This document shows positions 2,738 to 38,236 of a DNA stretch of 41,182 bases, piece after piece (positions within the stretch are counted from its first letter, which is position 1; every line of letters starts with the position of its first letter). The DNA is from Escherichia coli (GTDB lineage: Bacteria; Pseudomonadota; Gammaproteobacteria; Enterobacterales; Enterobacteriaceae), in assembly GCF_003334355.1 (NCBI RefSeq), contig NZ_QOWP01000031.1; one strand, 5' to 3'. The notes under the pieces are model-generated. The model made no database searches, had not been told where the DNA came from, and saw only the letters and a list, made by a program, of their open reading frames with translations. Both the position numbers and the translations under genes were made by a program.

Positions 2738-2977
2738 TGTAAAGCATCCACAATAGAAGAAGGATGCCGCAGGTTTCATCAATATTACGCGATGATGAGA
2801 ACCAGATGCGACGTTGGCCGGCAGGTCTTCGGGCTTGGAGGGGTATCTAAGATACTAAGAGATGATGACTTCCCACCGGATGGCAGTGTCCGCATAACGC
2901 AATCATCGCACCTTTCCTTACCGCTGCGCGTCAGCTCCAGATTCGCACTGGATTCCCTATTAACTCACAGGACCGGC
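2738..2977 (-). promoter_or_regulatory. Cobalamin (B12) riboswitch in the btuB 5' leader
   Basis: Roughly 240-nt untranslated leader directly upstream of the btuB ATG; minus-strand sequence GCCGGTCCTGTGAGTTAATAGGGAATCCAGTGCGAAT... and the B12-box-like GAAGACCTGCCGGCC (plus-strand 2811-2835) match the btuB leader as I remember it. The 5' boundary is approximate. Confidence 0.75.
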
Positions 2978-3105
2978 AAGTGGATGCTACAGGTTGTAAC
3001 AAGTTACTGTCCAGACGTAGCTCACAAATAGGAATTCATCAAGATCTGGACATCTGATGAGCAATCCCTACAATCGCCGCGTACTTTAATTTTTCAGGAT
3101 ACATC

Positions 3106-7981: not shown

Positions 7982-8090
7982 GAAACGGAGCGGCACCTCT
8001 TTTAACCCTTGAAGTCACTGCCCGTTTCGAGAGTTTCTCAACTCGAATAACTAAAGCCAACGTGAACTTTTGCGGATCTCCAGGATCCGC
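7982..8090 (+). ncRNA. oxyS: OxyS small regulatory RNA
   Basis: 109-nt sequence GAAACGGAGCGGCACCTCTTTTAACCCTTGAAGTCACTGCCCGTTTCGAGAGTTTCTCAACTCGAATAACTAAAGCCAACGTGAACTTTTGCGGATCTCCAGGATCCGC matches oxyS as I remember it; ends in a GC hairpin (GCGGATCTCCAGGATCCGC) followed by T8 at 8091-8098. Confidence 0.85.
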
Positions 8091-8152
8091 TTTTTTTTGC
8101 CATAAAAAAGCCCGGCGATAAGCCAGGCTCAAATTTATACATATAAATGTTC

Positions 8153-12683: not shown

Positions 12684-12785
12684 GTAGGCCGGATAAGGCG
12701 CTCGCGCCGCATCCGGCACCGTTGCCAAACTCCTGTGCCGCAATAATGTCGGATGCGATACTTGCGCATCTTATCCGACCTACAC
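12684..12785. repeat. REP/BIME cluster (two inverted REP units)
   Basis: GTAGGCCGGATAAGGCGCTCGCGCCGCATCCGGCAC and GTCGGATGCGATACTTGCGCATCTTATCCGAC: imperfect palindromes with the GCCGGATAAGGCG...CATCCGGC REP signature. Confidence 0.8.
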
Positions 12786-17616: not shown

Positions 17617-17700
17617 TTGCCGGATGCGACGCTTGACGCGTCTTATCCGGCCTACAGATCGCGGCGGTAGGCTGGATAAGGCGTTTACGCCACATCCGGC
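17617..17700. repeat. REP/BIME cluster
   Basis: TGCCGGATGCGACGCTTGACGCGTCTTATCCGGCCTACA ... GGCTGGATAAGGCGTTTACGCCACATCCGGCA: paired REP palindromes. Confidence 0.8.
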
Positions 17701-17812
17701 AATACAACTGCCGCAATGTTTACATCGAACTCCCCTCAGGCCACACTTTTCAGGTGGCCTTTTTTAATAATGCCAGTTACTGTTTTCCCGTCTACATACC
17801 TAAGGGAATAAC

Positions 17813-27094: not shown

Positions 27095-28198
27095 ATGGAC
27101 CGCATTATTCAATCACCGGGTAAATACATCCAGGGCGCTGATGTGATTAATCGTCTGGGCGAATACCTGAAGCCGCTGGCAGAACGCTGGTTAGTGGTGG
27201 GTGACAAATTTGTTTTAGGTTTTGCTCAATCCACTGTCGAGAAAAGCTTTAAAGATGCTGGACTGGTAGTAGAAATTGCGCCGTTTGGCGGTGAATGTTC
27301 GCAAAATGAGATCGACCGTCTGCGTGGCATCGCGGAGACTGCGCAGTGTGGCGCAATTCTCGGTATCGGTGGCGGAAAAACCCTCGATACTGCCAAAGCA
27401 CTGGCACATTTCATGGGTGTTCCGGTAGCGATCGCACCGACTATCGCCTCTACCGATGCACCGTGCAGCGCATTGTCTGTTATCTACACCGATGAGGGTG
27501 AGTTTGACCGCTATCTGCTGTTGCCAAATAACCCGAATATGGTCATTGTCGACACCAAAATCGTCGCTGGCGCACCTGCACGTCTGTTAGCGGCGGGTAT
27601 CGGCGATGCGCTGGCAACCTGGTTTGAAGCGCGTGCCTGCTCTCGTAGCGGCGCGACCACCATGGCGGGCGGCAAGTGCACCCAGGCTGCGCTGGCACTG
27701 GCTGAACTGTGCTACAACACCCTGCTGGAAGAAGGCGAAAAAGCGATGCTTGCTGCCGAACAGCATGTAGTGACTCCGGCGCTGGAGCGCGTGATTGAAG
27801 CGAACACCTATTTAAGCGGTGTAGGCTTTGAAAGTGGTGGTCTGGCTGCGGCGCACGCAGTGCATAACGGCCTGACCGCTATCCCGGACGCGCATCACTA
27901 TTATCACGGTGAAAAAGTGGCATTTGGTACGCTGACGCAGCTGGTTCTGGAAAACGCACCGGTTGAGGAAATCGAAACCGTAGCTGCACTTAGCCATGCG
28001 GTAGGTTTGCCAATAACTCTCGCTCAACTGGATATTAAAGAAGATGTCCCGGCGAAAATGCGAATTGTGGCAGAAGCGGCATGTGCAGAAGGTGAAACCA
28101 TCCACAACATGCCTGGCGGCGCGACGCCAGATCAGGTTTACGCCGCTCTGCTGGTAGCCGACCAGTACGGTCAGCGTTTCCTGCAAGAGTGGGAATAA
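27095..28198 (+). CDS. gldA: Glycerol dehydrogenase GldA
   Basis: Trimmed to [24 protein letters not shown]... (367 aa); iron-containing alcohol dehydrogenase family; atg at 27095. Confidence 0.92.
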
Positions 28199-28205
28199 CC
28201 TACTC

Positions 28206-28230
28206 CAAACTCCCGGCTTGTCCGGGAGTT
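28206..28230 (+). terminator. Hairpin immediately after gldA (possible terminator)
   Basis: AAACTCCCGG-CTTGT-CCGGGAGTTT: perfect 10-bp stem, but only a weak T-tract follows, so function as an intrinsic terminator is uncertain. Confidence 0.45.
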
Positions 28231-28243
28231 TGAACGCAAAATT

Positions 28244-28343
28244 GCCTGATGCGCTACGCTTATCAGGCCTACGCAATCTCTGCAATATATTGAATTTGCG
28301 TGCTTTTGTAGGCCGGATAAGGCGTTCACTCCGCATCCGGCAC
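28244..28343. repeat. REP/BIME cluster
   Basis: GCCTGATGCGCTACGCTTATCAGGCCTACG ... TGTAGGCCGGATAAGGCGTTCACTCCGCATCCGGCAC; almost the same arrangement as the cluster at 38083-38181. Confidence 0.8.
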
Positions 28344-28472
28344 TCTGTGCCAGTAATCTGAAACTCCCACGTTGTTCAGGAATTTTTTATCCGCTTCTGG
28401 ACATTTTCTCTACAGAACAATCGTTAGCCCGGAAGGTCGAATCTGTGACTCTTATTTTCACGGACGAACCAG

Positions 28473-29090
28473 ATGAAAGCTTCACTGGCGCTGCTCAGCC
28501 TGCTAACGGCATTTACCAGCCACTCCTTAAAATCTCCCGCCGTTCCACCAACCGTGGTACAAATCCAGGCCAATACCAACCTTGCCATCGCAGACGGTGC
28601 CAGACAGCAAATTGGCAGCACGCTATTTTACGATCCGGCGTATGTGCAGCTTACTTATCCTGGCGGTGATGTTCCGCAAGAACGCGGTGTATGTTCCGAT
28701 GTGGTGATCCGCGCATTGCGCAGCCAGAAGGTCGATTTGCAGAAACTGGTTCACGAAGATATGGCGAAGAATTTTGCTGAGTACCCGCAAAAATGGAAGT
28801 TAAAGCGCCCGGACAGCAACATCGATCACCGTCGGGTGCCTAATCTGGAAACCTGGTTTAGCCGCCATGATAAAACACGCCCCACCAGCAAGAACCCCAG
28901 TGACTATCAAGCGGGCGATATTGTCTCCTGGCGACTGGATAACGGGCTGGCACATATTGGGGTGGTTTCAGATGGCTTCGCCCGCGACGGTACGCCGCTG
29001 GTGATACATAACATTGGCGCAGGCGCGCAGGAAGAAGATGTGCTGTTTAACTGGCGGATGGTGGGGCATTATCGTTATTTTGTTAAATAA
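28473..29090 (+). CDS. yijF: DUF1287-family protein YijF (predicted secreted)
   Basis: 205-aa ORF with N-terminal signal-peptide-like segment (MKASLALLSLLTAFTSHS); synteny with K-12 yijF. Confidence 0.8.
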   Translation: MKASLALLSLLTAFTSHSLKSPAVPPTVVQIQANTNLAIADGARQQIGSTLFYDPAYVQLTYPGGDVPQERGVCSDVVIRALRSQKVDLQKLVHEDMAKNFAEYPQKWKLKRPDSNIDHRRVPNLETWFSRHDKTRPTSKNPSDYQAGDIVSWRLDNGLAHIGVVSDGFARDGTPLVIHNIGAGAQEEDVLFNWRMVGHYRYFVK

Positions 29091-29116
29091 GAGATCGCCC
29101 CACATGAAGAAAAAAT

Positions 29117-30022
29117 TCAGATCCTTTTTACACTGACGGCTTCTTTTTTCTTACGGCTCACCAGCGCCAGTGCCAGCACAATCAGCACAATACCGCTACC
29201 CTCAACCGCGCCAGGATTCTCACCGAGCAGCCACCAGGAAAAGAGTACGCCGCAAACGGGAACGGCCAGTGTGCTTAAGCTGGCAATACTGGCAGGCAAG
29301 TTTTTCAATACAAACAACCATAAGCTCCACGCCAGCGCCGTCGCCAGAATCGCACTGTAGGCCAGCGCCCAGAACACGGTGGGTTGCCAGTCAATTTCAC
29401 GTTGCGGTACCAGTAAAGCGACCACACTCATCACCAGCGCCGCATACAGCATCTGCCAGGATGTTAACGACAATAAATCCACGCGCGGATGACGGGCGTA
29501 AAGGCGTTTAGCGACAATGGCGCTCGCCCCCCAACTGACACCGGAGAGGATCGCCAGCATGGCGCTTTTCATCGAAGAGAAATCGAGTTGCCACGGCTGC
29601 AACACCAAAAATAAACCGAAAGCGGCAATCAGAATCGCGAAATATTGCCCACGTCGCAGGCGTTCACCGAGAAACAACGCGGCGAAAATCACTACCCAGA
29701 ACGGCATGGTATAGCTCAGGATCGCTACTTTCCCCGCTCCGCCGCTGACCAGCGCCCACTGCGCCAGACCAACCATCCCACAGGTTTGTAACAGGGCAAT
29801 GGCTAAGGTGTAATTAAACGGCGTCGGGCGCATTCCGCGACCACGTAATAAAAGGACGATGAATAAAACGAGAGCGCCGAAAATGCAGCGTAAGGCGGTG
29901 AAGTCGAAGGCACCGATGTAGCTGGTGACTTGCTTCATGAAAATCCAGCTATAACTCCAGATAAGTGTGAGCACAACCAGGCCACTGATTGCCAGTGGGT
30001 TGCTCTTTCCTGCGGCAGACAT
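29117..30022 (-). CDS. yijE: EamA/DMT-family transporter YijE
   Basis: Trimmed to [26 protein letters not shown]... (301 aa); about 10 TM segments; cat at 30020-30022. Confidence 0.85.
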
Positions 30023-30069
30023 GAGAGATCCAGTGTGTAGTTTTCCTGTGGACACTATACGCCGGTAAA

Positions 30070-30106
30070 GAAACTTCAGCGACTGCCTGAAAGGCAGTCG
30101 CTGAAG
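30070..30106 (-). terminator. Rho-independent terminator of katG
   Basis: Minus-strand CTTCAGCGACTGCC-TTTCA-GGCAGTCGCTGAAG followed by TTTCTTT, just downstream of the katG stop. Confidence 0.7.
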
Positions 30107-30115
30107 AAGGTCAGA

Positions 30116-32420
<2,305 letters not shown>

Positions 32421-32624
32421 AAATTGATCTTAATTAAGCTTTTTTGATTATGTCCGAATTCGGACAAATGCTTTATAAAAAAGGGTTTTAGCTTCATATC
32501 CTTCAAGTAATGAGGGAGAAAACAAGGCTGATAACCTTATTTTCCCGCCCTCATTTCGAGGCAGCATTTTGTGCTCTGTTTAAAATTTGTGATCACTGTG
32601 TGATTTTCACAAAAGCCACACTAT

Positions 32625-33518
<894 letters not shown>

Positions 33519-33572
33519 TTACCTCATCAATCGCTTGTAGTTATATGTTGTGTTGTGCACATCTATCCGTTT

Positions 33573-33612
33573 AGACGTCCAGATGTAAAGATGAAGGAAA
33601 AGCCGAAGGGCG
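33573..33612 (-). promoter_or_regulatory. MetJ operator (tandem met boxes) upstream of metF
   Basis: Tandem 8-mers AGACGTCC AGATGTAA AGATGAAG GAAAAGCC resembling the AGACGTCT met-box consensus, about 60-95 bp upstream of the metF ATG. Confidence 0.6.
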
Positions 33613-33863
33613 TCAACCGAAAAATGACCAATGATGGTGAGGAAAAATCAGGGAAGATGAAAAAACTTCAGGATGGTAAGAAAAAGAAAATCCGGTATGC
33701 AAAGCAAACCGGACTGCAAATATAAACTAACCATGTACTTATTGCTTCTTGCCGGATTCGTCGTAAACGCTTAATCCGGCCTAATCCTATGATAATTCAA
33801 TATATTTCATTAGAAACCATAAACCCGAAAACATGAGTACCGGGCATTATTAAATTTCTGAAA

Positions 33864-36296
33864 TTACAACAACTGTGCCAGCCGGTTGATATCCGACTGA
33901 ATCGCCCCGGCGGTGACGTCGCGCCCCGCGCCAGGCCCACGGATCACCAGCGGGTTGTCGCGATACCAGCGGCTTTCGATGGCAAAGACGTTATCGCACG
34001 GCAGCAGTGATGCCAGCGGATGGTCTTCACGCACCGCCTCCACGCCCACACGCGCTTTGCCGTTGGCATCGAAACGCGCCACGTAGCGTAGCACCAGCCC
34101 CATTTCGCGGGCCGCTTCCAGCCGTTGCACCATCTGCTCGTTAAGTTCATCGCCATTTTCAAAGAAATGGTCGATGCTGCCGCCTTCGCAATGAGCAGGC
34201 ACCAGCGATTCCACACGTACCTGGTCCGGTTCAATGTTGTAACCCGCTTCACGCGCCAGAATTACCAGCTTGCGCATTACGTCTTTGCCGGAGAGGTCGT
34301 CACGCGGATCAGGCTCGGTTAAGCCCTGCTGCCACGCCTGATCCACCAGCTCGGTAAACGGCACGCTACCGTCGAATTGCAGGAACAGCCAGGAGAGCGT
34401 GCCGGAGAAGATCCCGCTGATCGACAAAATAGTATCGCCGCTGTCGATCAGATCGCGCACGGTGTGGTTGATCGGCAAGCCCGCACCGACGGTGGCATTG
34501 TACAGCCAGTGACGCCCGGTTTTTTCGAAGGCGTCGTGGATCTGGCGATATTTATTGCTGTCGCTGGCTCCCGCCAGTTTGTTGGCGCTGATAACGTGGA
34601 AACCGTGGCTGGCGAAATCAAGATACTGATCAGCAAGCTGCTGGCTGGCGGTAACGTCCAGCACCACTAAATCATCATACGGATGGGCGCGCATCCACAG
34701 GAACAACGACTCTTCATCCTGCTCAACCGCTTCATCGTTGAAGAAGGCTAACGCGCGGCTGGCGTCCAGCCCGTCATAGCTCAACAGGCTGCGGCGGCTG
34801 TCCACCACACCTGCCAGCACAAACTCAAAGCCGGTACGTGCCGAAAGCGTACTCTGCTCACGGGCGAACAGTTCCAGCCAACGGGAACCGATATTGCCCT
34901 TACCGAACAATACCAGGCCGATGCGTTTTTCTGCGCGGAAGACGGACTGATGCAGCCCCTGAATCAGGCTTTCGGTCGGGCCGGTGCGCAGTACTGCCAC
35001 CAGGCTGATGCCGTCATCGGACTGCCAGGTAAATTCGACCGGCTGGCCTTTCAGTTGCTGCCAGAAGCGGTGGCAATGCAGCGGGTTACGGGTGACGCCT
35101 GCACCGACCATCGCCACCAGCGCCAGCCCCTGACGCAGGCGCAGTTCGCCAGGTAATCCCGCTTCGTCGAGGATTTTCAGCGCACTGTCGGCCACTTCTG
35201 AGGTGTAGCAAAATTGCAGCAACTGGCGATCGTTATGTACGCCAACCGCCAGCGGGCGTACCTGCGCGCGTTTCAGGATTTGGTCGATCTCTTTATGCGC
35301 CAGTTTGAAATCCTGACTGGCGGGCACCTGAAACTCAATCAAACAGACATCATCGTGGCTGGTGACAATACGCGCACCAGTACCGGAGGCCAGCACGCGT
35401 TCAATGCGCGTGGAACCTTGATCCGGCGTGTAGCTACAGCGCAGTTGCAGGTCGATTTCGCTGCCAGAAACCGGCTGTAAAGTACGGGCGTGAAGAACGG
35501 GAGCCGCCAGGCGCGCCAGTTCGCTGGCCTCATCCAGACGCAGCAACGGCAGCAGGCAGGCATCTTTCACTTTACGCGGGTCGGCACTGTATACCCCGGC
35601 GACGTCGCTCCAGATGGTTACGCGAGAAACACCCGCCAGCGCACCGATTTGTGTCGCGGAATAGTCGGAACCGTTACGCCCCAGCAGCACCGTTTCACCG
35701 GCGTTGTTGCGGCTGATAAATCCGGTCACCACCAGACGTTTGCCCGGATGTTGCACCAGCAGCTGTTGCAGCAACGGGTAAGAAAGCCCTTCATCAACCT
35801 GCGGTTGTGCGGCGCGTTCAGCGCGTAAAAACTCGCGGGCATCAAGCCAGGCCGCTGGCAGCCCTTGTTGATTAAGTACCGCAGACATCAGGCGTGCCGA
35901 CCATACTTCCCCGTGGCCCACCACTTCCGCATACACTGCGTCGTTAATACCGCTGTCGAGCAGCGCCGCCAGGCGCTCAAGGTCGCTGACAAAAGCGCTA
36001 ATGAGGCTATCGGCTTCTTCAGCGGGTAGCAGACCGCTAATCAGATCACACTGATAGCGACGCAGCGTTTGTTGAACCTGATGCGCAGAGAGACGATCGG
36101 TCTGGCTTAGTTTCAACCAGTTAATCAACTGGTTAGTGGTGCTACCGGCAGCGGAAACCACCATCATATCGTCAGGCTGAGAGTACTCCGCCATAATGCC
36201 CGCGACACGCAAATAACACTTCACATCAGCCAGACTACTGCCACCAAATTTATGCAGCTGACGACCTTTCGCCCCTGCCTGCGCAATCACACTCAT
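33864..36296 (-). CDS. metL: Bifunctional aspartokinase II / homoserine dehydrogenase II MetL
   Basis: 810-aa ORF MSVIAQAGAKGRQLHKFGGSSLADVKCY...; aspartokinase N-terminal plus homoserine dehydrogenase C-terminal. Confidence 0.93.
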   Translation of the reverse strand: MSVIAQAGAKGRQLHKFGGSSLADVKCYLRVAGIMAEYSQPDDMMVVSAAGSTTNQLINWLKLSQTDRLSAHQVQQTLRRYQCDLISGLLPAEEADSLISAFVSDLERLAALLDSGINDAVYAEVVGHGEVWSARLMSAVLNQQGLPAAWLDAREFLRAERAAQPQVDEGLSYPLLQQLLVQHPGKRLVVTGFISRNNAGETVLLGRNGSDYSATQIGALAGVSRVTIWSDVAGVYSADPRKVKDACLLPLLRLDEASELARLAAPVLHARTLQPVSGSEIDLQLRCSYTPDQGSTRIERVLASGTGARIVTSHDDVCLIEFQVPASQDFKLAHKEIDQILKRAQVRPLAVGVHNDRQLLQFCYTSEVADSALKILDEAGLPGELRLRQGLALVAMVGAGVTRNPLHCHRFWQQLKGQPVEFTWQSDDGISLVAVLRTGPTESLIQGLHQSVFRAEKRIGLVLFGKGNIGSRWLELFAREQSTLSARTGFEFVLAGVVDSRRSLLSYDGLDASRALAFFNDEAVEQDEESLFLWMRAHPYDDLVVLDVTASQQLADQYLDFASHGFHVISANKLAGASDSNKYRQIHDAFEKTGRHWLYNATVGAGLPINHTVRDLIDSGDTILSISGIFSGTLSWLFLQFDGSVPFTELVDQAWQQGLTEPDPRDDLSGKDVMRKLVILAREAGYNIEPDQVRVESLVPAHCEGGSIDHFFENGDELNEQMVQRLEAAREMGLVLRYVARFDANGKARVGVEAVREDHPLASLLPCDNVFAIESRWYRDNPLVIRGPGAGRDVTAGAIQSDINRLAQLL

Positions 36297-36298
36297 TT

Positions 36299-37459
36299 TT
36301 ACCCCTTGTTTGCAGCCCGGAAGCCATTTTCCAGGTCGGCAATTAAATCTTCGCCATCTTCAATACCGGTGGAGATACGCAGCAGCGTCTCGGAGATCCC
36401 GGCGGCAGCACGCGCTTCTGGTGCCATGCCTGCATGTGTCATGGTTGCGGCGTGAGAGATTAAACTTTCCACTCCCCCTAATGATTCCGCCAGCGTAAAC
36501 AACGACAGCCCGCCCAGGAAACGACGCAGCGTCTGCTCATCGCCATCCAGTTCAAAACTCAACATTGCGCCAAAGCCTTTTTGCTGGCGCGCGGCAATTT
36601 CATGCCCCTGATTTTCCGGCAGCGACGGGTGATACAGTTTTTTCACCAACGGCTGGGTTTGCAGATATTTCACAATCGCCTGCGCGTTGCGCTGGGCCAA
36701 CTCCATGCGCGGCACCAGCGTTCGCAACCCGCGTAGCAGCAGATAGCTGTCAAACGCGCCGCCCGTCACGCCAATATTGTTTGCCCACCAGGCAAGTTCA
36801 GTGACAACGTCCGGGTCTTTAGCAATCACCACGCCAGCCACCACGTCAGAGTGACCGTTCAGATATTTCGTGCATGAATGCAACACCAGATCGGCACCTA
36901 ATGCCAGCGGATTTTGTAATGCCGGGCTTAAGAAGGTGTTATCCACCACGCTCACCGCCCCGACTTCCCTAGCCAGATGGCAGATTTTCGCAATATCCAC
37001 GACGCGTAACAATGGATTACTTGGGCTTTCTACCAGTACCAGTTTGGGTTTTTCTGCCAGCGCTGCCCGTAATGCCTGTTCATCGCCTTGATCAACAAAC
37101 AACACGCGATAGCAACCGCGTTTCGCCAGGCTGTCGAACAGGCGATAGCTACCGCCGTAGCAGTCGTGCGGCGCAACCAGCAGATCGCCTGGTTTCAAAA
37201 AGACGGTCGTTACCAGGTGAATCGCGGACATGCCGGTATTAGTAAGTACTGCACCAGCACCGCCTTCCAGTTCTGCCAGCGCACGCTGAACCACATCGCG
37301 CGTTGGGTTGCCGCGACGCGAGTAATCATGCGCGCGCGGTTCATTAAATCCGGTAAAGTTATAGGTACTGGAAAGATGGATCGGTGGGACAACGCAACCA
37401 TACTGTTCGTCGTCATTTAACCCGCTACGCACTGCGATGGTGGCCTGTTTACGCGTCAT
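36299..37459 (-). CDS. metB: Cystathionine gamma-synthase MetB
   Basis: Trimmed to MTRKQATIAVRSGLNDDEQYG... (386 aa); PLP-dependent family; cat at 37457-37459; 2-bp gap to metL. Confidence 0.92.
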   Translation of the reverse strand: MTRKQATIAVRSGLNDDEQYGCVVPPIHLSSTYNFTGFNEPRAHDYSRRGNPTRDVVQRALAELEGGAGAVLTNTGMSAIHLVTTVFLKPGDLLVAPHDCYGGSYRLFDSLAKRGCYRVLFVDQGDEQALRAALAEKPKLVLVESPSNPLLRVVDIAKICHLAREVGAVSVVDNTFLSPALQNPLALGADLVLHSCTKYLNGHSDVVAGVVIAKDPDVVTELAWWANNIGVTGGAFDSYLLLRGLRTLVPRMELAQRNAQAIVKYLQTQPLVKKLYHPSLPENQGHEIAARQQKGFGAMLSFELDGDEQTLRRFLGGLSLFTLAESLGGVESLISHAATMTHAGMAPEARAAAGISETLLRISTGIEDGEDLIADLENGFRAANKG

Positions 37460-37509
37460 GTGATGAAGTTCCCTGGGCTTGGTCGGTGAAATGTCAGGCA
37501 CCAGAGTAA

Positions 37510-37545
37510 ACATTGTGTTAATGGACGTCAATACATCTGGACATC
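37510..37545. promoter_or_regulatory. Met-box-like repeats in the divergent metB/metJ control region
   Basis: TGGACGTC AATACATC TGGACATC TAAACTTC: tandem 8-mers related to AGACGTCT between divergent metB and metJ. Confidence 0.5.
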
Positions 37546-37735
37546 TAAACTTCTTTGCGTATAGATTGAGCAAATCCCAAATAGCCGTTAAAATTATATG
37601 CATTATCACGCCGACAGGTGCATTACACGATGTCACGGTAACGCCTGTACGGTAAACTATGCGGGTTTACGGTCAGTACCCACATAAATTGTGTGGTCTG
37701 GTCTCAATTTATTGACGAAGAGGATTAAGTATCTC

Positions 37736-38053
37736 ATGGCTGAATGGAGCGGCGAATATATCAGCCCATACGCTGAGCACGGCAAGAAGAGTGAACAAGT
37801 CAAAAAGATTACGGTTTCCATTCCTCTTAAGGTGTTAAAAATCCTCACCGATGAACGCACGCGTCGTCAGGTGAACAACCTGCGTCACGCTACCAACAGC
37901 GAGCTGCTGTGCGAAGCGTTTCTGCATGCCTTTACCGGGCAACCTTTGCCGGATGATGCCGATCTGCGTAAAGAGCGCAGCGACGAAATCCCGGAAGCGG
38001 CAAAAGAGATCATGCGTGAGATGGGGATTAACCCGGAGACGTGGGAATACTAA
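37736..38053 (+). CDS. metJ: Methionine repressor MetJ
   Basis: Trimmed to [58 protein letters not shown]... (105 aa); atg at 37736. Confidence 0.93.
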
Positions 38054-38082
38054 AGCAAAAAAGAGCGGCGCGGAGTGGAATC

Positions 38083-38181
38083 GCCTGATGCGCTACGCTT
38101 ATCAGGCCTACGTCATATTGCAATTTATTGAATTTGCACGAACTTGTAGGCCGGATAAGGCGTTCACGCCGCATCCGGCAT
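38083..38181. repeat. REP/BIME cluster
   Basis: GCCTGATGCGCTACGCTTATCAGGCCTACG ... TGTAGGCCGGATAAGGCGTTCACGCCGCATCCGGCA. Confidence 0.8.
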
Positions 38182-38236
38182 AAACAACGAGCACGTTGTC
38201 TGCGACCCACCGCTTTTTATACATGGACGTTTAACT

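Follow-up and report, generated by a model that had tools for sequence, protein, structure and literature searches.

The DNA analysed here is a 41,182 nt stretch of Escherichia coli (contig NZ_QOWP01000031.1 of assembly GCF_003334355.1), termed the window; it is chromosomal and runs opposite to K-12 coordinates 4.124–4.141 Mb. The strain is not K-12 itself, the gldA and yiiX sequences being 99.2% and 97.0% identical to those of MG1655. Two clusters of repetitive extragenic palindromic (REP) sequences, termed segments A and B, are found in the 3′ regions of two co-directional genes of the window. Segment A encompasses positions 28244–28342; it starts 45 nt past the gldA stop codon (28196–28198) and the next gene is yijF. 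Segment B encompasses positions 38083–38180; it starts 29 nt past the metJ stop codon (38051–38053) and the next gene is yiiX. The interval between the two carries yijF, yijE, katG, metF, metL, metB and metJ. The K-12 RefSeq annotation of the gldA–yiiX stretch lists no repeat features. A sequence-only reading had placed REP clusters after gldA and after metJ, and both are found there to within 1 nt, in the gene context that it described and with all of the strings that it quoted.

Segments A and B display the same unit order. A 29 nt Y-type REP with the sequence GCCTGATGCGCTACGCTTATCAGGCCTAC(G) is followed by a linker and then by an inverted Z-type REP, GTAGGCCGGATAAGGCGTTCAC[T/G]CCGCATCCGGCA, where A has the T. 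The linker contains TGCAAT[A/T]TATTGAATTTGC and is 35 nt long in A and 34 nt in B. There is one Y and one Z per locus, i.e. a single unit and no tandem array. The segments are direct repeats, both in + strand orientation and 9,839 nt apart; the order and orientation that the sequence-only reading gave to the two units are thus correct.

A global alignment of A with B has 88 identities in 99 columns and one 1 nt gap. The exact runs common to both are of 30, 24, 12 and 12 nt. The longest unbroken identity is the 30 nt run GCCTGATGCGCTACGCTTATCAGGCCTACG, at positions 28244–28273 in A and 38083–38112 in B; the 24 nt run is TTGTAGGCCGGATAAGGCGTTCAC and one of the 12 nt runs is TATTGAATTTGC. The likeness ends at the element edges. 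A chance similarity is ruled out, as no match to the REP patterns is expected from shuffled versions of the window. The identity exceeds the bare REP consensus and includes the linker, as the pairwise alignment proposed with the sequence-only reading was meant to establish. The two segments had also been called near-identical. They are real repeats, however the term is overstated, since the linker taken alone is just 71% identical.

Membership in the BIME-1 family

Bacterial interspersed mosaic elements of type 1 (BIME-1, also RIP or RIB) have reportedly been described by Gilson (1991), Bachellier (1994, 1999), Boccard and Prentki (1993) and Oppenheim (1993). By definition, BIME-1 has a y and a z1 unit on either side of a long conserved L linker, in which a site for integration host factor (IHF) is frequent, and it occurs singly (PMC3333891). 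It measures about 140 bp (PMC1187871), and isolates differ in whether they carry it (PMC1187871; PMC3333891). The family is dispersed in Escherichia and some of its relatives. Comparison with the family indicates that A and B are very probably separate members of BIME-1, with the structure Y-L-Z1, and the pair consists of already-known, ordinary elements. Both display a Y and an inverted Z, a conserved L linker with an IHF-consensus core, a single copy, a 3′-end intergenic site and a total length of about 140–150 nt when the outer motifs (below) are included. Nothing essential differs. Element A has shortened outer motifs, and element B is within a terminator loop instead of between duplicated hairpins.

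The Y REP is letter for letter the known REP reported in PMC11208160 and is also the consensus of 36 family members. The Z unit is putatively assigned to class Z1 through its association with the L linker (PMC3333891), as the sequence alone did not separate Z1 from Z2 here. The IHF consensus WATCAANNNNTTR is matched with one mismatch in both A and B, and IHF binding has been reported for the L linker of BIME-1 (PMC3333891). By analogy, the L linker of A and B would bind IHF.

Further copies were obtained by a scan of representative genomes with the anchors CAGGCCTAC and GTAGGCCGGATAA separated by 25–45 free bases, the linker being unconstrained. The scan gave at least 120 loci; with the window and K-12 copies, 131 pattern matches were listed. 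Among the matches listed, 76 of the 131 have the same 57 nt span as A, and most have the same linker core, TGCAATATATTGAATTTGCA; these are from E. coli, E. albertii, E. whittamii and Pseudocitrobacter. The linkers of A and B fit the family consensus ..cTGCAATATATTGAATTTgCA.GaTTTTG, which was recovered without a linker constraint. The extended identity of A and B is thus due to the L linker, which belongs to the BIME-1 family consensus.

The Pseudocitrobacter copies (L037–L056, L077–L098) are abundant and more uniform than those of E. coli, with a mean pairwise identity of 0.90–0.91 vs. 0.84. This uniformity, together with the many perfect flanking hairpin duplications described below, suggests a more recent expansion of BIME-1 in Pseudocitrobacter.

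Several other repeats were noted. Two more BIMEs are present in the window, at positions 12684–12785 and 17619–17701, and are of other types; their linkers differ and there is no L linker. In one, a Z-type REP is combined with a second REP that points the opposite way. The other is made of two REPs joined by an 11 nt linker, and a terminator-like hairpin follows it at about positions 17739–17766. BIME-1 is described as single, yet E. albertii NBRC 107761 has four tandem Y-L-Z units with a period of about 147 nt (L007:6978–7476). A 262 nt contig from the assembly of the Firmicute Desulfosporosinus sp. OT (L031) carries a typical Escherichia-type BIME-1, probably as a contamination of that assembly. 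In a Bacteroidales metagenome-assembled genome (L116) just the two short anchors match, and this looks like a chance match.

Relationship of the two copies and the question of exchange between them

The likeness of A and B could in principle have a local origin, where duplication or gene conversion copied B from A or A from B and gave the pair a history beyond family membership. The two are 88/99 identical, in the same orientation and 9.8 kb apart, as such a copying would leave them. Their identity (0.889) is also above the mean of pairs among the 22 E. coli family members in the matches listed (mean 0.835, standard deviation 0.044). However, 13% of these E. coli pairs are at least as similar as A and B, and for the linker alone the value is 28%. 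Among the 101 other copies listed, 29 are as close or closer to A than B is and 20 are as close or closer to B than A is; these unrelated copies include other species.

Each of the two copies is nearer to the consensus of 36 Escherichia copies (90/99) than to its partner (88/99). A and B agree at 64 of the 66 columns with a conservation of 90% or more across the family, but at only 6 of the 12 columns conserved below 70%. They share just two non-consensus bases, both at columns in which the consensus base is itself no more than a plurality (47%), and there are no informative shared derived bases. This is the pattern expected of two independent, little-diverged copies of one consensus. In addition, the two copies have different flanking A and B motifs and different insertion contexts. 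As the two elements sit differently in their sites, they are taken to be independent insertions. Their frequencies in the population differ as well, A being present in 4,589 complete E. coli genomes and B in 2,714. A local duplication or conversion is therefore extremely improbable, and we hold with high confidence, from the comparison of the copies, that the likeness does not come from duplication of, or sequence exchange between, A and B. The special link proposed by the sequence-only reading was not borne out; the likeness is that of the BIME-1 consensus, and the two are not mutual nearest relatives.

Several points weigh against the assignment of A and B to independent BIME-1 copies. Their identity is 1.2 standard deviations above the E. 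coli family mean. This is due to both copies being near the consensus, but the excess does not by itself exclude slight past gene conversion. The family sample is skewed to well-preserved copies because exact REP-end anchors were required, and its E. coli part is incomplete (at least 120 loci overall). The IHF consensus match is not significant in the window, where there are 36 matches vs. 30 expected.

An E. albertii copy (L006) with a linker 91% identical to that of A was considered as the counterpart of A. BLAST searches of its flanks with those of gldA and yijF gave no match, and L006 is just another family member.

The sequence-only reading had also proposed that the pair is a potential substrate for recombination. 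In this case it would work in homologous recombination and would delete or duplicate the yijF-yijE-katG-metF-metL-metB-metJ interval in natural populations. Direct repeats with exact runs of 30 and 24 nt are present, and REP/BIME elements are reported to be associated with recombination (PMC3184786). The junctions expected from such events were searched for as chimeric queries, one for the deletion (gldA 3′ end–BIME–yiiX) and one for the tandem duplication (metJ–BIME–yijF), a match being at least 80% coverage at a single place. The deletion junction was found in 0 of 5,426 complete E. coli genomes and the duplication junction likewise in 0 of the 5,426; the halves of the queries match solely at their usual, separate positions. 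Identity between A and B is also broken every 12–30 nt. About 30 nt of unbroken identity is near the minimum for RecA-dependent exchange. Loss of the interval with metB, metL, metF and metJ would cause methionine auxotrophy and be selected against. A working role of the pair in recombination is highly improbable on these grounds. The inversion that had been suggested between the copies is not possible, as direct repeats cannot invert the interval between them. It is to be expected that E. coli has BIME-1 copies 10 kb from each other, and because there is no sign of recombination the pair should not be marked as a hot spot of rearrangement.

Insertion sites and flanking hairpins

The conserved unit extends past the REPs. 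On the left is a 24 nt motif, the A motif, with the consensus GAGATTGCTGACAAACGCAAAAYT, and on the right a 29 nt motif, the B motif, TGAACAACGCGCACTTTGTCAGCAATCTGA. These outer motifs are inverted repeats over about 15 nt, AGATTGYTGACAAA, and the full unit is about 152 nt long. Among the matches listed, 28 of the 81 copies examined display a locus-specific hairpin that is directly repeated on both sides of the unit. The repeats have a median length of 21.5 nt, a median identity of 91% and a median folding energy of about −12.7 kcal/mol. In most copies 24 nt separate the left-hand hairpin from Y, and 29 nt separate Z from the right-hand hairpin. The layout of the family is thus hairpin, A motif, BIME, B motif, hairpin and T-run. 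The T-run is found only after the right-hand hairpin copy, with a mean of 6.2 T vs. 2.9 after the left-hand copy.

Cognate flanks pair far better than mismatched flanks (p = 1.8e-5). Copies above the 99th percentile of mismatched flanks number 20 of 39 in Pseudocitrobacter, where many of the repeats are perfect, and 13 of 49 in Escherichia. In a second Escherichia flank test the background was inflated by the tandem arrays of L007 and L030, and the first test and the version without those loci are preferred. L030 displays a repeated block of hairpin and A motif.

Filled and empty alleles show the duplication directly. At pgm-potE (L141/L143) one hairpin in the empty allele becomes two in the filled allele. 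At uvrB-yvcK (L142/L144/L107) a single hairpin is present in strain 405, which has the empty allele, and two are present in strain E69; in K-12 the left copy has decayed. These two independent allele pairs confirm the hairpin duplication, and the pattern in which the local terminator hairpin is directly duplicated on the two sides of BIME-1 is well supported.

In several respects the unit resembles the miniature inverted-repeat transposable elements (MITEs). It is about 152 nt long, is non-coding, has the inverted-repeat ends AGATTGYTGACAAA and is flanked by a direct target duplication. Unlike in MITEs, the duplicated target is a whole hairpin of variable length (16–39 nt, median about 21) and not a fixed 2–10 bp. 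We know of no parent insertion sequence with the same ends as BIME-1. A review states that REPs lack MITE signatures (PMC3184786). The open literature searched gave no description of the duplicated-hairpin layout or of the inverted-repeat ends; the founding BIME papers were outside this search, and no newness is claimed. That the full BIME-1 unit behaves like a MITE which lands on Rho-independent terminators and duplicates the whole hairpin (16–39 nt), and that this is both real and not already described, is put forward only tentatively and is more doubtful than probable. If true, the arrangement of A-run, hairpin, element, hairpin and T-run would keep termination intact in both directions and would place BIME-1 in the 3′ ends of neighbouring transcripts. 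A stagger of hairpin length would imply cuts at both feet of an extruded hairpin or cruciform, which offers a model for the spread of REP doublets. Element A would then be a decayed example of the duplicated-hairpin layout, and element B a variant inserted in the terminator loop.

At the gldA locus, all parts of the insertion but the Z REP are given on the + strand. The left copy of the duplicated target hairpin is at positions 28207–28231, 8 nt past the gldA stop codon, with the sequence AAACTCCCGG-CTTGT-CCGGGAGTTT; the hairpin is strong, its predicted RNA fold is fully paired and its place matches the family layout. A shortened A motif, GAACGCAAAATT, follows at positions 28232–28243, as judged by manual comparison with the 24 nt family consensus. 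The Y REP is at positions 28244–28272 and has at positions 28262–28272 the sequence ATCAGGCCTAC, the target of the insertion sequence IS621 (below). The 35 nt L linker (28273–28307) displays the IHF-consensus match ATTCAATATATTG on the minus strand at positions 28283–28295. The Z REP (28308–28342) lies on the minus strand, inverted with respect to Y with its GTAG end on the + strand, and has one mismatch to the consensus, the T at position 28330. A shortened B motif, CTCTGTGCCAGTAATCTGA, is at positions 28343–28361, again by manual comparison; the family consensus is 29–30 nt long and ends in CAATCTGA. A degenerate second copy of the hairpin, AAACTCCCACGTTGTTCAGGAA, and then TTTTTT occupy positions 28361–28388. 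By manual alignment 19 of 26 positions of this copy are identical to positions 28207–28232, and its position fits the family pattern. This hairpin and the TTTTTT run probably act as the terminator of gldA.

Of the 5,426 complete E. coli genomes, 4,589 carry BIME A. The same gldA–yijF flanks enclose, in about 795 genomes, an unrelated repeat of about 154–180 nt (L123:1104–1285; L145:151–304), which has about 6 copies per genome and displays GGGAGAGGG/GGGTGAGGG palindromes. From its length and copy number this repeat is probably the RSA element. It has the ends GAGATTGCTAACAAAC ... TTTGTCATCTGA, which are similar to the outer motifs (A and B) of BIME-1, and several repeat families may therefore use one insertion machinery.

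The metJ locus has a different arrangement, with the BIME inside the terminator. Positions 38057–38076, AAAAAAGAGCGGCGCGGAGT, are the A-run of the metJ terminator and the left arm of its hairpin; up to this point the filled allele is continuous with the empty one in the alignment of the two. Next, at the left margin of the insertion, is GGAATC (38077–38082), which may be what is left of the A motif. The Y REP (38083–38111) is identical to that of A and to the family consensus at 29 of 29 positions, with its IS621 target at positions 38101–38111. The L linker of 34 nt (38112–38145) has the IHF-consensus match ATTCAATAAATTG on the minus strand at positions 38121–38133. The Z REP (38146–38180), again on the minus strand, is identical to the consensus at 35 of 35 positions. 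A full-length B motif, TAAACAACGAGCACGTTGTCTGCGACCCA, at positions 38181–38209 is missing in the empty allele. The right arm and T-run of the terminator, CCGCTTTTT, are at positions 38210–38218 and are predicted to pair with positions 38060–38068 around the entire BIME. These parts, too, are on the + strand where not otherwise stated.

The full 331 nt metJ–yiiX query with BIME B is found in 2,714 of the 5,426 complete genomes. The empty allele is found in GN02461 and four further contigs (L122, L128, L131, L133, L134). It has a 59 nt spacer, AAAAGAGCGGCGCGGAGTTAACCAGCCGCTTTTTT, with the predicted fold of a plain hairpin and U-run (−20.9 kcal/mol). In the filled allele about 130 nt, consisting of GGAATC, the BIME and the full B motif, are in place of loop bases (window positions 38057–38218), and in the predicted fold the outer stem is still closed around the BIME. 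Salmonella (L136) has a plain terminator after metJ; BIME B is therefore taken as a derived insertion in part of the species. The element is nearly invariant across the filled alleles examined. An origin of BIME B by decay of the duplicated-hairpin layout was considered but needs two separate deletions; a single insertion into the terminator loop is simpler. A scan for consensus promoters and terminators found nothing in the gldA–yijF spacer and, for the metJ–yiiX spacer, only sites inside yiiX; its terminator loop limit of 3–8 nt makes it blind to a terminator interrupted by BIME B.

The natural filled/empty pairs at metJ-yiiX, pgm-potE and uvrB-yvcK define the ends of the mobile unit. Together with the duplicated hairpins and the targeting by IS621, they could help to test how REP doublets spread.

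Proposed mobilisation, transcript context and possible function

The REPINs, which are reportedly mobilised by the REP-associated tyrosine transposase (TnpA-REP, also RAYT; Bertels and Rainey 2011, Nunvar 2010 and Ton-Hoang 2012 are said to treat this), are similar to A and B in that they consist of an inverted pair of REPs able to form a single long hairpin and have a star-like relation to a consensus. A single-copy tyrosine transposase of the HUH type is the proposed mobiliser. BIME-1 copies would likewise have been spread by the single-copy TnpA-REP acting on single-stranded hairpin DNA, with terminator hairpins as the preferred landing sites. However, the units on either side of the RAYT gene in E. 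coli are Y and Z2 and not Y-L-Z1 (PMC2817692). The REPIN paper examined does not mention terminators or flanking direct repeats.

The sequence-only reading had pointed to activity of the REP-associated transposase at the two copies. In vitro, REPs that bear GTAG are bound by TnpA-REP, which on single-stranded DNA cuts inverted REPs of the types y, z1 and z2 as well as CT sites in the linker; the cleavage data are for other E. coli BIMEs (PMC3333891). The GTAG/CTAC ends are intact in both A and B. That A and B are currently processed by TnpA-REP is nevertheless quite unlikely, since BIME B is nearly invariant in the filled alleles, there is no copy-number variation at either locus, there is no tnpA-REP gene in the window and REPIN duplication rates are extremely low (bioRxiv 10.1101/2024.07.17.603846).

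IS621 is a different recombinase system from the REP-associated transposase, and it acts at both sites. It is an IS110-family bridge-RNA recombinase with the natural target ATCAGGCCTAC, which has a CT core (PMC11208160). Strain DEC9B has an IS621 copy within the Y REP of BIME A (L124:100–460, 1380–1720), and strain GPEC548 has one within the Y REP of BIME B (L125:1120–1460, 2380–2640). The junctions are ...ATCAGGCCT|TGTATT... and ...ACAGTATCT|ACG..., and the site is ATCAGGCCT^AC; the insertion is exactly after the CT core of the natural target in both cases. Both loci are thus real IS621 targets. Targets of IS621 and the IS110 family in REPs are reportedly described by Choi (2003) and Durrant (2024). 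That both Y REPs carry the natural target is a trait of the Y REP as a target and does not explain the BIME.

With respect to the transcripts, A and B both follow the stop codon and either precede the terminator or lie within it, and from this layout they would be transcribed into the 3′ ends of the gldA and metJ mRNAs. When the isolated cores of 98–99 nt are folded at minimum energy, the Y REP is paired with the Z REP; the energies are −41.1 and −42.7 kcal/mol, with z-scores of −4.6 and −5.4. Either element is predicted to fold as two REP hairpins or as one long Y–Z hairpin. REP stem-loops are barriers to 3′-to-5′ exonucleases and shield the upstream mRNA, and those in the 3′ ends of gldA and metJ would block these enzymes.

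Selection on such host functions, i.e. an IHF-bound nucleoid site or mRNA 3′-end protection, could be what keeps the copies alike, rather than recent descent from a mobile master copy. The conserved columns of the family are the REP stems and the IHF-like core of L, the elements are in 3′ untranslated regions and the reported binding of IHF to the L linker (PMC3333891) would agree with this explanation. However, B is missing in half of the complete E. coli genomes and A is replaced in about 795, so neither is needed at its locus, and the duplications of target hairpins show spread by insertion. Maintenance of the likeness by host function is on balance unlikely. Each of the two elements can be missing or replaced in many strains, and we infer that both copies are near-neutral passengers or mild modulators.

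Two Rfam families of candidate small RNAs derived from REP elements, ES036 and naRNA4, align to the L linker and the Z REP, respectively. ES036 (RF02751) matches the linker of B on the minus strand at positions 38104–38145 with 39.6 bits, above the cut-off of 37.6, and the linker of A on the minus strand at positions 28265–28307 with 34.8 bits, below this cut-off. naRNA4 (RF02564) gives weak matches on the Z REP (28311–28382). Both models appear to represent the BIME/REP consensus. A 43 nt model equal to the repeat consensus, such as ES036, will match many BIME-1 copies and is no evidence of a distinct RNA gene at A or B. A literature search for ES036/CssrF returned unrelated papers only.

Elsewhere in the window, Rfam matches are the OxyS small RNA at positions 7982–8091 (+ strand) and a cobalamin riboswitch at positions 2803–2992 (minus strand), the latter being probably the btuB leader. 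Both fit the inferred chromosomal region.

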